The notes: a model not told the origin generated them from the sequence alone. A stretch of 64,000 bases of DNA from Halobacteriaceae archaeon (GCA_042216675.1 JBDGTS010000008.1:32001-96000), one strand, 5' to 3'; numbered from the stretch's first letter, positions 13,561 through 45,390 are shown. Numbers and translations are program-made.

Positions 13561-16500
13561 AGCGTGCGGAAGTGGTCCGGCGAGGGCTGGTAGATTTCGC
13601 CCTTCTGCTTGAGGTTCTCGATTTCGTTCTCGGCCTTCGAGCGCTCCATCCCGTCGGCCTCGGCGGCGTCAAGCACTTTTTCGAGGGGCGCGCCCTCGTC
13701 GTACTCGTCCTGCAGGTCGTCGATGACGTCCTTGATGCCCCGGATGCGGTCACGCTGGCTCTTGGAGGTGCCCGTCTCGATGACGTCGGCGTCGAACTCG
13801 CCCGTCTCGGGGTCCATCCCGACGTCCTCCATCGTCTTGCGCACGATCTCGATGACGCGGTCGGCGTCGGCCTCGGTCACCTCGTCGGCGAGGCGCACCC
13901 GCGCGGAGGCCTCCGCGAGGCGGACCAGCGCTTCGAGTTTTCGGGCGGTCACCGGCACGGGGGCGTCCTCGCCGGTGCCCTGCGCCCGCAGGTCGACGTA
14001 GAACTCGCGGATGCGCGCCATCGCCGCCTCCGTCATCGTCGGGAAGATGTTGCGCCGCGAGTAGGCGACGTACTTCCGCAGGAGTTCGGGTTCGATGGCG
14101 GGCGCCACGTCGTCGGTGACGCTCTCGACTTCCGCCTCGGAGACGTTCGACTGGGTCATCTCCGTGCGGTGGGTGTTGAGTTCGCCCGCGTAGTTCGTCT
14201 TCAGGATGTGGTCGGCGAGTTCGGCGTCTCGCTCCTCGTCCGGTTGGTCCGTGACGGTGAAGATGAGGTCGAACCGGGAGATGAGCGCGGGTTCGAGGTC
14301 GATCTGCTCGCCGATGCCCTCGTACTGGTCGAAGCGGCCGTGTTTGGGGTTCGCCGCCCCCAGTAACGAGCATCGGGCCTTCAGCGTGGCGTTGATGCCC
14401 GCCTTCGAGATGGAGACGGTCTGCTGTTCGAGGGCCTCGTGGAGCGCCGAGCGGTCGCCGGCCTCCATCTTGTCGAGTTCGTCCACCGCCGCCACGCCCT
14501 TGTCCGCGAGGACGACGGCGCCGGCTTCCAGCGTCCACTGCTGGCCGTCGCCGAAGTCGTCGCGGACGGCGGCGGCGGTGAGACCGGCCGAACTGGAGCC
14601 TTTACCGGAGGTGTACACCGACCGGGGGCTGATGTGGCGGATGTACTGGAGCAGTTGGGAGTTGTGCGAGACGATTCCATTCGAGACGTAGCTGTGCGTC
14701 CCCCCGACTTCGAGGTCGTACACCCACTCGTCGTCCGGTTCGACCGTCTCGATGGACTCGATTCGGTCCCAGCGCACGTCGCTCTCGGCGAGCGACCGGA
14801 GCGCTCGCACGTCATCGGCGGCCGCGAGTGCCTCGTCGATGGTGTTGAGGACCGCGTCGCGAGCGTCCGTGGTGTGTCCGCCGTCGGGCGCCACGTCCTC
14901 GCGCTCGTAGTAGCTAATCGCCGTCTGGGTCACGTCCATCCCGTCGGCGAGCGTCTGTTGGGAGAGTCTGAGTTCCCGTCGCACCGCCGTGATGTCGTCC
15001 CAGTCTCCCGCAGCTATTTTCGCTCGCATCGTCCGGAGGTGTTCGAGGCGGTCCTCGAAGGCCGAAACGACGGCGTCGAGACTCTCTCGGCTCGGATTCC
15101 GGTCTCCTCGTTCGTAGTGCTGGTACGTCGTCCGGGGAACGCCACACTCCCGCTGAGACAGCGCCAGTGCCTCCCGAACTCGGCGGAGGTCATCGCCCAC
15201 GTCGGGCACTACATCCCGGTTCGTGTTCCGGTCGGCGTCCCCGAACGCCTCGGCGGCGGACGACTTCCGCTCCGTGACGAAGCCGACCGATTCGACGTAT
15301 CGAACGAAATCCTCGCCGCTGATGCGCAGTCGATAGCTCCCGTTGTGGCGAGATTCGAGGCTCGAACCGACGCCGAGGCTCAACAGCAGCGACCGCACTC
15401 CGCCGAGTAGCGTCTCGCTCATCGACGCCACCGTTATTTCACGCTCTGCCGACGAGACGTGCCCTTCGCCCTCGACGTACGCTTCGAGGAACGCCGCCTT
15501 GATTTCGGGGCTCGCGCGGAACAGCGATTCGGGAACGCGTTGCGCCGCGGAGCCGTCGAGAACTGCTGGCTCGATGCCGTGGAGGAAGCGCACGAGTTCG
15601 CTCGACGTGCAGATAATCTCGGCTGCGGCCGTTCCGCTTCGGCTGTTCCGTTCCGTCCAGTTGACGCCGAGACGGTCGAGCGCCTCCGTCACGTCGTCGA
15701 GTACCGCACGGTCGTTGTTCGTGACGCGAAGGTCTGCGGTGTTGTCGTCGTTCAGCGTCGCGTACCCCTCCGCAACGACGTATCCGACGAACCGGGCTAA
15801 CCACGGCGTCCACTCGCTCGGCGGGTCGAGTCGGACCGCGTTGGGCGACTTCGAGCGTCGGAACTCGATGGCTAGTTCGTCGTCCCCGGCTTCGGGGAGG
15901 TGTCGCGGCGTGGCGACGAAGTCGCCTTCGTCGAGGTCCGACGCCTCTATTGGCCTGAAATCCCCGCCTGACTGTACGAACAGAGGGTGTGACGGCGTCA
16001 CCGTCAGTACCCGACCGCTGGCGGTTGCGATGCGGTACATCTCCTCCGGCGCCTCGCGCTTCCACACTTTCGTCGCGCGTCGCGGTTCGATCCGTCCGTC
16101 GGGTGTGAGCGAGGGGACCTCGGCGTCAACCGTATCGTACACGCCGTCGTCAATCGGTTTCGGGTCGTCGAGGTTCGCCTCCACGAACTCCCGAATCCCG
16201 ACTTCCGAGCCGTCAGCGAGCGTGATGGGGGTGTCCCCGTCGAGACACTTCCCCGTACCCGGGTCCCCGATGAGGAGCATGTGGAGGTCCCCCCGCGTCC
16301 GGGAGCCGTCGGGGAGGTGCTTGGTGACGCCGGAGAACAACTGGAGCGCCATCGCCAACTTCGCCTGCCGGTGGCCGTAGATGGCGGGCGCGATGGAGTC
16401 CACCATCATCTCGTAGATGTCGTCGCTGTCGGACAGTTCGGCGATGTCGGCCTTGTCCTCGTCGTCGATGTCCATGTCCTCGTACTCCTCGTCCTCCACG

Positions 16501-27106: not shown

Positions 27107-27402
27107 TGAGACCGCCCTGGACTCGCGATACTCGTCCGCGCGCTCTCGACTCGGTGTACTCGCGAGGCCGCCCGGAGTCGAATCTCAGTCACTCCCGTTC
27201 GCTCGTTTCACTCGCTCACCTCCCGCTCCCTGCGTCGAATCCGCGGCCCCGTGAGCCGCTCACGATGTTCGCGGCAGCATGGACCGCCCGGATTCGAACC
27301 TCGGTCGCTGGGTCGAACCCCTACGTGCGGTCTTTCTGCCCGCGTTTTTTGCGAGGGAGCGAAGCGACCGAGGAAAAAGCGGGATGGGGCCGCCGTGGCT
27401 CG
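27107..27402. repeat. Distal array of degenerate tRNA-Pro 3'-end repeats with hairpin spacers
   Basis: Copies of TGGGACCGCCCGGATTCGAACC at about 27107, 27166, 27280 and 27385. Segment 27226-27300 aligns with 28852-28928, and 27325-27392 aligns with 28729-28805. Confidence 0.85.
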
Positions 27403-27454: not shown

Positions 27455-28528
27455 TCAGAATTCGGGGAAGCGTTCGAGTTCCCCCGTTGGGACCGTCTGC
27501 CTGCCGACGACGAAGTCCCCGTCCACGGATTCGGTGACCTCGAATCCCCCAATCTCCGTCGGCAGGAAGTCCTCGCTGTCAGCGGCGGCCGACGCGCGCG
27601 CCTCGTCGGTGAACGGAAACGCGAACACCTTCTCGGTCTCTTGGTCCCCGACTCTCCAGCCGATTCCCGTTCCGAGTGCGCCCTCGGGCAGGCTGTTCGT
27701 ACTCCCGCTCACGTACACCGTCCCGTACGTCACCCGAACAAACGTATCTGCCTGGACAATTTCGAATAGCCGAGCGACTTTCGCATCGACCTCGTGAGCC
27801 CGCGCAACCGCGCCGGCCCGAGCATCGACGAACGTCTCGAGCAGGTCGGCCCCCTCGGGGTCGAATACGGCGATGACGACCGAATCACTGACGCCGATCG
27901 CGTTTCCGGTCTCGTTGTTCTCGATGATAGTGACGCCCTCGTACTCCGTCGGGCCGCTGGCCCACCCCTCGTTCAGATACGCGTCGACGGCGCTCTGCTC
28001 GTCGAACGTCCCGAGGTAGACGTGCGCCGCAGCGCCGCTCTCGGACCCGTCTCGCCACGGTGTCCGGATGCGGATGGAATCGTTGACCTGTCCCGGTTCG
28101 ACGTGCTGTGGCGTGTGCTCGTCGCCCGGAAATTTGCCCGACTGACTCGATAGCAATCCGTCCTGAAGACTGGCCTTCATCGAGCGGATCGCTGCGGCGT
28201 CGACGTACCATAGCTCGAAGTTGACCGTCCCGTCGACTGTCGAGGCTGGCGCTGGTATCCAGTCGGCGTACGGATAGTCGCCGGGCGTTCTGGTTTCGGT
28301 ATCGGTCCCGCCGTCTTCAGTCTCTGTCGTGGCGTCGGTCGCGTCGCCTTCTGTCTCCGTTCCGGTTTCAGTCGTCGCCGTCGTCGCGGTGCTGTCACCG
28401 CCCCCGGGTAGCGTCGCTGTGTCCTGCGTCCGGTCGTCCGTCCCGTCACCGCTACACCCGGCCACCAGCACGGCCCCAACTAACCCGCCACGTTGGAGGA
28501 GTCGGCGTCGGCTGTAGTTGGCACTCAT
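27455..28528 (-). CDS. Tat lipoprotein of unknown function with Thr/Glu-rich linker
   Basis: SRRRLL twin-arginine signal, VAGC lipobox, T-rich stalk and an acidic globular domain. Confidence 0.85.
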   Translation of the reverse strand: MSANYSRRRLLQRGGLVGAVLVAGCSGDGTDDRTQDTATLPGGGDSTATTATTETGTETEGDATDATTETEDGGTDTETRTPGDYPYADWIPAPASTVDGTVNFELWYVDAAAIRSMKASLQDGLLSSQSGKFPGDEHTPQHVEPGQVNDSIRIRTPWRDGSESGAAAHVYLGTFDEQSAVDAYLNEGWASGPTEYEGVTIIENNETGNAIGVSDSVVIAVFDPEGADLLETFVDARAGAVARAHEVDAKVARLFEIVQADTFVRVTYGTVYVSGSTNSLPEGALGTGIGWRVGDQETEKVFAFPFTDEARASAAADSEDFLPTEIGGFEVTESVDGDFVVGRQTVPTGELERFPEF

Positions 28529-28682: not shown

Positions 28683-28906
28683 TGGTGCCCCGTGGATTCG
28701 AACCGGGGTCGCGACCCCGACTCCGACCGTGCGGTCTTTTTTCCCACGTTTTTGCGAGCGAGGTCGCTGCGCGACCGAGCGACGCCAAAAGTGGAATGGG
28801 ACCGCCCGGATTCGAACCTCAGTCGGACGCGCTCGCTTCGCTGTGCGCGACCTCCCTGCTTCGAATCCGGGGCCCCCATGCGCCGCTCACGGTGTTCGCG
28901 GCAGCA
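28683..28906. repeat. Proximal array of tRNA-Pro 3'-end repeats with hairpin spacers
   Basis: GGATTCGAACCGGGGTCGCG at 28694-28713 and ATGGGACCGCCCGGATTCGAACC at 28796-28818 duplicate the tRNA 3' region. An inverted copy TTCGAATCCGG lies at 28860-28870. Confidence 0.9.
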
Positions 28907-44887: not shown

Positions 44888-45107
44888 GTTATGCAATCAC
44901 TTGCCTCTACGTATGGAGTCGAACCATTTCAACCTTTTCTGGGGAAATAATTCGTGAACGTCATCCCGAACGGGGATATTTGCCGGGAAAATAGGCGTAT
45001 GTACACCTCCTGAGCCCTTCCCGACATTCGGTATCGATTGGCACTAGCGGCCGTGGCGCACCCTCTGCACGGCGATTTGGTGTCCCGAGTCGGCTCTTTG
45101 CGCCCGC

Positions 45108-45317
45108 TCGCCGTCCGGCTTTTCGACCCCTCTCTCCGGTCTCATCAGAACGCAGAGCGTTCTGGTTGGCTCACGAGACGCTCTGCGTCTCGCGAACGTC
45201 GCCAGAAAGGTCCGGGTGCGAGAATCGAACCCGATGGCGAGACTCGCGTCGCTCGTCTCGCGTGGTTCGATTTCGCTGTCCGGCTTTTCCACTCCTCCCG
45301 CTGGTCGTCGTGAAAAA
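45108..45317. repeat. tRNA-His 3'-end repeat with fold-back unit and twin hairpins
   Basis: Exact 24-bp duplicate GTCCGGGTGCGAGAATCGAACCCG at 45210-45233 versus 45318-45341. An inverted copy lies at 45264-45283, and hairpins lie at 45146-45164, 45174-45192 and 45237-45261. Confidence 0.9.
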
Positions 45318-45390
45318 GTCCGGGTGCGAGAATCGAACCCGCGTCCCAGCCTCCACAAGGCTGGAGGATAACCACTACCCCAACCCGGAC
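45318..45390 (-). tRNA. tRNA-His(GTG) with genome-encoded G-1
   Basis: G-TCCGGGT...ACCCGGA-C acceptor; anticodon arm CAGCC-TTGTGGA-GGCTG; T-loop GGTTCGATTC. Confidence 0.97.

Follow-up and report, generated by a model that had tools for sequence, protein, structure and literature searches.

Behind tRNA genes of haloarchaea we found short non-coding units, here termed tail cassettes, in which a hairpin-rich interior is followed by a copy of the adjoining tRNA gene's 3' end. In the sense of the tRNA, the cassette order is a pyrimidine-rich trailer, hairpin A, the tRNA tail in degenerate antisense form, hairpin B, and an exact copy of tRNA positions 52-73. The explanation that we favor, and to which we give about an even chance, is that these units form a family of small, hairpin-rich, non-coding and non-autonomous mobile cassettes that use the 3' tail of tRNA genes as their insertion site.

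The tRNA-His locus

The stretch of DNA analyzed as a whole (the window) comprises 64 kb of a Halobacteriaceae archaeon (GCA_042216675.1 JBDGTS010000008.1:32001-96000), of which the locus at positions 45,108-45,390 is shown. The following features were annotated at this locus, with coordinates counted from the first letter of the window:

45318-45389 (-): gene of tRNA-His (GTG), which serves the cassettes as platform (Rfam RF00005, 49.7 bits; gathering threshold 29)
45317-45390 (-): tRNA-His as called by ARAGORN (anticodon GTG)
45318-45341 (-): tail copy D0, inside the gene; positions 52-73 (45318-45339) and two more matching bases
45284-45317 (-): cassette start, T-rich trailer TTTTTCAC and module A (from sequence and fold)
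45264-45283 (-): antisense segment, in which the tRNA-His tail is present as a degenerate reverse complement with the exact inverted T-loop AATCGAA
45234-45263 (-): module B; hairpin at 45237-45261 and CCATCG at its end, directly before the next tail copy
45210-45233 (-): tail copy D1, displaced or duplicated tRNA-His 3' end, exact 24-mer
45142-45201 (-): twin-hairpin element, about 57 nt long, that interrupts the older cassette (fold z -5.6)
45100-45141 (-): older cassette remnant that retains module A and, of the antisense segment, the part on the acceptor side

The locus is one complete 108-bp tail cassette together with one older cassette that is truncated or decayed. The first-pass annotation of this DNA had reported an exact 24-bp direct repeat of the tRNA-His 3' end at a distance of 108 bp, and this repeat was present: the 24-mer GTCCGGGTGCGAGAATCGAACCCG has exactly two matches in the 64-kb window (45210-45233 and 45318-45341; repeat family of 28 nt at 96%), start to start 108 nt apart with the second copy downstream in the sense of the tRNA, and it was matched in none of 100 dinucleotide shuffles, even at 3 mismatches. 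The similar spacing that had been noted at tRNA-Pro was likewise recovered, with a copy of the tRNA-Pro tail 110 nt downstream. The duplicated block proper corresponds to the 22 nt of tRNA positions 52-73; its start is G52 in 73 of the 122 units described below, and the two extra matching bases at tRNA-His may therefore be accidental.

The interior between the two tail copies is 84 nt long and contains no gene. Its hairpin B was found where it had been placed earlier (45237-45261), with a 7-bp stem GCGAGAC/GTCTCGC and a conserved 11-nt loop GAGCGACGCGA, and the inverted degenerate copy of the tRNA-His end at 45264-45283 was confirmed as a segment that can pair with either flanking tail copy, D0 or D1. 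In the predicted fold, the far arm of module A, GTGGAAAAG, pairs back onto the trailer. Folded as single-stranded DNA, the part composed of tail, A and antisense segment (45264-45341) reached -22.3 kcal/mol (z -4.8) and the part composed of antisense segment, B and tail (45210-45283) reached -22.1 kcal/mol (z -3.9); in both cases none of 200 shuffles folded as well.

The remnant of a further unit was also borne out, as the match of 45108-45124 to 45273-45289 at 16/17 nt could be read directly and extends to 82% identity over 34 nt (45108-45141 against 45273-45306). This older remnant (45100-45141) is without an inverted T-loop, without B and without a third tail copy. A T5 tract lies directly after tRNA-His, and in relatives the tRNA keeps as its neighbor the gene on its other side (45440 onward). 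Among Rfam families only tRNA reached the threshold at this locus.

Occurrence in this genome and in other haloarchaea

For the genome of the window (G000) a set of 32 tRNA genes was used, consisting of 30 Rfam hits and 2 further ARAGORN genes; ARAGORN with introns allowed returned mostly false genes, and Rfam tRNA hits were therefore used. Testable tRNAs were the 28 whose downstream flank measures 150 nt or more, and a tail copy was defined as the tRNA's own last 21 nt with at most 3 mismatches. In this search, which the first-pass annotation had proposed, 15 of the 28 testable tRNAs carried one to three copies of their own tail, giving 22 complete units, and an exact inverted copy of the tRNA's own T-loop 7-mer was present in 17/22 units. 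The same inverted 7-mer occurred in only 2/28 control stretches that follow the last tail copy and are at least 100 nt long (32 listed, of which 4 were shortened by contig ends and 28 were comparable). The genome-wide test supports the earlier suggestion of a general process fitted to each tRNA instead of one fixed repeat. In this genome tRNA-Lys(TTT) (contig C45:10402-10507) and tRNA-Arg(TCT) (C18:15409-15512) have a short intron after the anticodon and two cassettes each; both genes were missed by ARAGORN without the intron option.

Searched across the genome, tail copies were local, downstream and in the same orientation as the tRNA. The distant exceptions were a decayed tRNA-Pro unit about 1.6 kb from the tRNA-Pro gene and, at about 10 kb, a sequence matching the tRNA-Pro(GGG) tail with 2 mismatches; the other hits came from the tails of similar isoacceptors, and three isolated ones had 2 mismatches. 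An autonomous parent element, for which the search for distant tails was also used, was rejected as the tail copies were local apart from these few exceptions.

The other 4 of the 32 tRNA genes in the assembly have less than 150 nt of flank before a contig end, which is consistent with assemblies breaking at cassette arrays. Such arrays probably interrupt short-read assemblies: contig ends lie within or just after the tRNA genes C26:4-88, C37:39-111, C37:22420-22490 and C50:15872-15942, and cassette motifs were seen at the contig ends C41:19849, C42:56 and C42:91.

Among relatives, 10 of the 22 tRNA-His loci with enough flank have a tail copy, and among named haloarchaeal species the count was 40/79 tRNA-His loci, from Haloferax and Halorubrum to Natrinema and Haladaptatus. 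As a probe of breadth a 19-nt motif was used that joins the inverted T-loop to the start of hairpin B. It matched in Haloferax marinum, Halorubrum vacuolatum, Halorientalis regularis and two Halobacteriales MAGs, and in all five haloarchaeal genomes the motif lies behind a tRNA gene and is followed by that tRNA's tail copy, variably decayed; four bacterial matches look like chance. A search of 50,697 phage and 72,556 plasmid records turned up no homolog of the cassette. Matches in phage records were confined to the tRNA body; among the plasmid records, three matched at the tRNA gene and 11 at the twin-hairpin element.

Among the sequencing matches listed, the stretch occurs in DNA contigs of salt-lake metagenomes only and in no RNA dataset, and contigs from four metagenome runs end inside the repeats. 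Contigs of two runs (X1 and X2; window 45218-45339) carry a related variant of the tRNA-His cassette with 15 differences as well as 3 gaps across about 120 nt. This variant is the more abundant one in these two runs, and a related population carries a homologous unit. Metagenome joints such as 45231 to 45318 were considered as signs of excision and are not readable in this way, having short sides and unknown letters between them. A published description of tail cassettes was not found in the literature searched, which lies outside subscription journals.

Anatomy of the cassettes

The anatomy was compiled from 122 units at 88 loci, after exclusion of copy pairs separated by over 260 nt and of those in which over 2 mismatches were present. 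The median period was 118 nt (range 91-200), with interiors of about 70-180 bp. The tail copy was exact in 94/122 units, and identity ended 0-3 nt past the discriminator in 91/122. The orientation of a cassette is always that of the tRNA; it starts directly after the discriminator and ends directly before the second positions 52-73, and the gene is therefore left intact and its T-rich trailer kept. A T-rich tract follows every tail copy, and the first 8 nt of the cassettes are 76% pyrimidine, compared with 42% for whole interiors (n = 122). Arrays contain one to five cassettes, and terminal inverted repeats were not visible by eye in the cassettes.

The 11-nt core that had been noted as shared between loci is real and corresponds to the loop of hairpin B, AGCGANGCGA. 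It is present in 23/122 units and in 42/122 under a relaxed pattern, with 0.0014 expected per interval scanned (relaxed 0.0063), and only one unit has it in antisense orientation. Around this loop 11 different, perfectly complementary stems were counted, a covariation pointing to a hairpin that is read as a single strand or as RNA. The loop of module A is often GAACGNAGTGA, and the loops of A and B share the consensus GARCGNAGYGA. The B stem and loop type of the tRNA-His cassette is also present at two further tRNA-His loci (L144 and L164) and behind tRNA-Arg(TCT) in this genome.

Of 26 loop-core hairpins whose stems have 4 bp or more, 19 lie away from tRNAs, some of them in tandem, and modules A and B may for this reason be independent small repeats that accumulate behind tRNA genes. 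Hairpins with a GARCGNAGYGA loop were seen in tandem far from tRNAs in this genome at C13:46286, 46359 and 46432 (period 73) and at C2:111738 and 111839 (period 101).

Turnover, arrays and movement between tRNA genes

Two congeners (G016 and G003) were compared using the 30 best-scoring tRNA loci of each, which include 26 tRNAs of identical sequence; the number of cassettes differs at 15 of these 26. At tRNA-Glu(CTC) a filled locus (L095) has an 80-nt interior and a 22-nt tail copy that are both absent from the empty locus of the congener (L063), while both loci have the same trailer and, distal to it, an older decayed unit. The interior of the filled locus is related to the tRNA-Glu(TTC) cassettes of the other congener, with its halves at 95% and 88%. 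The difference between the filled and the empty locus can equally be a precise loss through recombination between tail copies. A third congener was tried to polarize gain and loss and was rejected, the matching locus there being tRNA-Gly.

Interiors within an array had a median identity of 62% (46 pairs), compared with 58% for random pairs, and reached at least 90% in 3/46. Since neighbors are hardly more alike than random pairs, the arrays are collections of different cassettes and not amplified units, and tandem amplification was ruled out on the same comparison. Distal units are decayed.

Closely similar cassettes were found behind different tRNAs. Unit 2 of tRNA-Leu(TAG) and unit 2 of tRNA-Val(CAC) are 92.6% identical over 122 nt, and unit 3 of tRNA-Lys(TTT) and unit 1 of tRNA-Arg(CCG) are 92.1% identical over 76 nt within one genome; each of these cassettes has the local tRNA's own tail on both sides. 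Beyond two loop bases, the differences in the Lys/Arg pair lie in the acceptor side of the antisense segment, where each fits its own tRNA. In the Leu/Val pair the antisense segment behind tRNA-Leu is largely Val-like, and only its outermost bases, next to hairpin A, are refitted.

The fit of the antisense segment to positions 61-73 of the unit's own tRNA was ranked for 59 units of three genomes. The mean rank was 0.28 compared with 0.5 expected, with 41% of the units ranking below 0.1 and a Wilcoxon p of 7e-7, in which related units are not independent of each other. When a smaller set of 18 units, all from this genome, was tested first, the antisense segment showed no locus-specific signal on its acceptor side (mean rank 0.41). 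The earlier claim that the arms are specific to each locus accordingly holds for the direct copy, exact in most units, and for the preference of the antisense segment for its own tRNA; it does not hold throughout, as the antisense segment partly travels with the cassette.

Tracts of 100% identity, comprising the tail and 24-80 nt, adjoin diverged sequence and point to gene conversion that would keep the tails exact. Tail identity is thus no proof of target duplication, because gene conversion could make a tail local that was brought in by an element. At tRNA-Lys(TTT), unit 3 of G016 and the trailer of G003 (loci L050 and L080) are about 90% alike in A and the antisense segment and have unrelated B hairpins, and local matches between cassettes of different tRNAs cluster at the B end (71/156 at relative position 0.8). 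From both observations, B seems to be exchanged on its own.

Other small elements at the cassettes

The twin hairpins described by the first-pass annotation exist at 45146-45164 and 45174-45192 (z -5.6), and it is their place in the tail architecture that was not upheld: judged by its matches, the element is a separate dispersed repeat. The stretch covering it (query positions 194-268) matched 11 haloarchaeal plasmid records at 77-88%, including Haloferax volcanii DS2, and a second copy lies behind tRNA-Ser(GGA) at the same relative place in a cassette.

At the junction of the twin hairpins with the old cassette (window 45115-45165, minus strand) the sequence CUGAUGAG, with a short helix and CGAAA, forms a perfect hammerhead core. 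Rfam Hammerhead_3 (RF00008) scored 26.1 bits on 45115-45165 (-), below its threshold of 48.5, with the 5' strand of helix III and the cleavage site deleted in the alignment, and no further hammerhead core was found elsewhere in the genome or in 230 fetched loci. A type III hammerhead ribozyme was therefore rejected as sub-threshold, without its cleavage strand and unique, and the match was treated as chance.

The decayed tRNA-Pro cassette, downstream of its gene (window 27140-27300, minus strand), has a tail, A, an inverted T-loop, a long B and a tail remnant. It is separated from the gene-proximal units by an open reading frame of 357 codons (27455-28528, minus strand), so that a protein gene sits between tail copies; the predicted start of this reading frame reads like a twin-arginine signal. 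Another recurring element, a long palindrome with an A/T tip (CCACTTTTTCC...GCAAAAACGTGGGG-AAAAGACCGC), follows the last tail copy of several tRNAs (window 28700-28796 and 27330-27390 (-); C18 about 15730-15800 in this genome; loci L045, L067, L074 and L098 of congeners). Some distal tail copies are interrupted at about position 60/61 or 64/65 by inserts of a different type, which end in ...CGGGAGT (L081, tRNA-Ala(CGC) of G003; L058, tRNA-Arg(CCG) of G016), and tail copies hence receive more than one kind of small element.

Proposed mechanism and alternative explanations

Under the favored reading of mobile cassettes, insertion would take place at a tail copy, either through cuts made at both ends of the 22-bp tail segment or by way of a folded single strand. 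The antisense segment would pair with the tail and so place hairpins A and B at the two junctions, a pairing that may be akin to that between guide and target in IS200/IS605 elements or to the folded attC and CTX sites. After insertion, gene conversion would keep the tail copies identical to the gene. The antisense segment would be owned by the cassette and refitted only later and gradually to a new tRNA, through hairpin-templated (quasi-palindrome) correction across hairpin A, and the putative enzyme would act in trans. A further-reaching version, which we regard as possible and rather doubtful, is an undescribed cassette system with integration of a folded strand by a candidate host or helper enzyme, in which the guide is rewritten from each new target; the element would then reprogram its own target recognition at each change of tRNA.

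Several readings without such mobile cassettes were weighed. That the units are scars of integrase elements at the T-loop, either attP arm regions left after loss of the interior or miniature attP sites moved in trans, with a tail borne by the element, is improbable. Repeats of this kind are known from the group: extracts of PMC3119063 and PMC7002104 give, respectively, a 22-nt duplication of a tRNA tail at the end of a Haloquadratum prophage and a 27-bp repeat at tRNA-Lys of Halobacterium R1. The repeat of the cassettes also reaches the tRNA 3' end, as expected if an element must restore the gene, and gene conversion, which is evidently active, could erase a foreign tail. Against this stand the 84-nt interior without a gene and the range of the retained units of 91-200 bp (pairs more than 260 nt apart having been excluded beforehand), since random deletion would not yield such a narrow range of sizes; the phage (50,697) and plasmid (72,556) records, in which no homolog of the units was found; and the Leu/Val and Lys/Arg cassettes, each of which has the local tail at either side. 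Moreover, the first product of a crossover in the T-loop would be a chimeric tRNA, and a classical attP gives the internal antisense copy no role.

The fixed orientation relative to the tRNA, the T-rich tract after every tail copy, the conserved hairpin loops with covarying stems and the two alternative antisense pairings of equal stability would all suit an immobile, functional trailer in which antisense pairing sets termination or 3' processing and arrays arise by local duplication. We hold this to be unlikely, as about half of the tRNAs are without cassettes, the number and identity of the cassettes vary between congeners with identical tRNAs, and distal units decay; the neighbors in an array are unrelated, so local duplication fails to explain the arrays. 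Oligo-T terminates archaeal transcription, and the T5 after tRNA-His would probably stop it before the cassette; nor does any Rfam family other than tRNA reach its threshold. Least probable, in our view, is that there is no element at all and that the units result from template switching during replication or from fold-back repair at the palindromic T-arm, as in inverted triplications. The zig-zag layout of tail, antisense segment and tail around two hairpin centers, and the hairpin-templated correction that seems active on the antisense segment, would agree with such an origin, whereas modules A and B do not derive from the locus and are common to several tRNAs and genera, whole cassettes recur behind other tRNAs, the junctions are precise, and the antisense segment is imperfect even in young-looking cassettes. 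The interior at tRNA-Glu(CTC), too, is not locally derived, being related to the tRNA-Glu(TTC) units of a congener.

Candidate enzymes

Profiles of three enzyme families were followed across 41 genomes. Cas1 (PF01867) was present in 10/41 and not found in G003 (99% complete, with many cassettes) or in this genome (80% complete). The IS200 Y1 transposase (PF01797) was present in 22/41 and not found in this genome, G015 or G040, of which the latter two nonetheless have tail copies at 13/30 and 5/30 tRNAs; among relatives, the presence of Y1 showed at most a weak, non-independent trend with cassettes at the tRNA-His locus. The reverse transcriptase profile RVT_1 (PF00078) was found in 0/41 genomes. 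Cas1, the Y1 transposase and reverse transcriptase were rejected as the cassette enzyme, as their profiles do not track the cassettes. A circular or excised intermediate of a cassette was not seen in this analysis, nor was an insertion event.

Comparison with known systems

Tyrosine-integrase elements that target tRNA genes were reportedly divided by Williams in 2002 into classes by sublocation, including the T-loop. The attL/attR sites of integrase elements resemble the cassettes in having a repeat of about 22 nt from the tRNA 3' part that runs to the end of the tRNA, an intact gene and an insertion downstream. Unlike these elements, the cassettes have only 70-180 bp between the repeats, no integrase or other gene, unrelated members within an array, an internal antisense copy of the tail, and the same interior with the tails of different tRNAs. 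As to whether a tail is carried by the element, the cross-tRNA pairs show the local tail on both sides, where gene conversion could have replaced the tail of the donor.

Some casposons target tRNA 3' ends. Casposons are inserted by Cas1-family integrases (PMC4046053). With Cas1-type insertion the cassettes share the duplication of a fixed segment of two helical turns, the 22 bp being repeat-like, and arrays of new and old members. They differ from CRISPR arrays and casposons in being structured cassettes and not captured spacers, with neither terminal inverted repeats nor a polymerase gene seen, and from Cas1-type insertion in general in that Cas1 was not found in two genomes that bear cassettes.

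Integron attC and the attP of CTX phage and IMEX are folded single-strand sites, and the ends of IS200/IS605 elements use pairing between a guide and the cleavage site. Similarly, the cassettes have an imperfect palindrome (antisense segment, B and tail) at their end, a conserved structure with variable stems and an internal segment complementary to the joining site, and they stack at one platform. Unlike integron cassettes they carry no genes (none fits the 84-nt interior) and their platform is a tRNA gene; unlike folded-site systems in general they duplicate a 22-nt block, and Y1 is not consistently present. The insertion of IS200/IS605-derived elements (PATE) and of RAYT-REP takes place without target duplication, in contrast to the tail copy on both sides of a cassette.

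The trailer of E. coli tyrT (rtT/tpr) has 178-bp units repeated 3.14 times, each of which ends with the last 19 nt of tRNA-Tyr, and these units are copies of one another. As at tyrT, the cassettes are units behind a tRNA gene that each end in a copy of the tRNA 3' end, but the members of cassette arrays are 62% alike, near the random level, and half of all tRNAs are affected. With REP and BIME sequences the A and B hairpins share a conserved loop (GARCGNAGYGA), variable stems, and dispersed as well as tandem occurrence elsewhere in the genome, whereas REPs are not bound to tRNA tails and have neither a 22-nt target duplication nor an antisense copy.

If the cassettes are mobile, they would imply that tRNA genes are read at their T-arm end by a recombination activity so far unknown, and that there is a route by which an element's target-pairing segment is adapted to new targets; should they instead be functional, tRNA gene structure in a model archaeal group would have a widespread layer that annotations lack. 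They turn over faster than species diverge. They offer a fast-evolving marker for strain typing, and they could be mistaken for the scars of prophage attachment sites. To our knowledge, the inserters into tRNA genes that duplicate the 3' end carry genes, including their own recombinase; the unit described here is non-coding and of about 100 bp, present at about half of the tRNAs checked and in many haloarchaeal genera.
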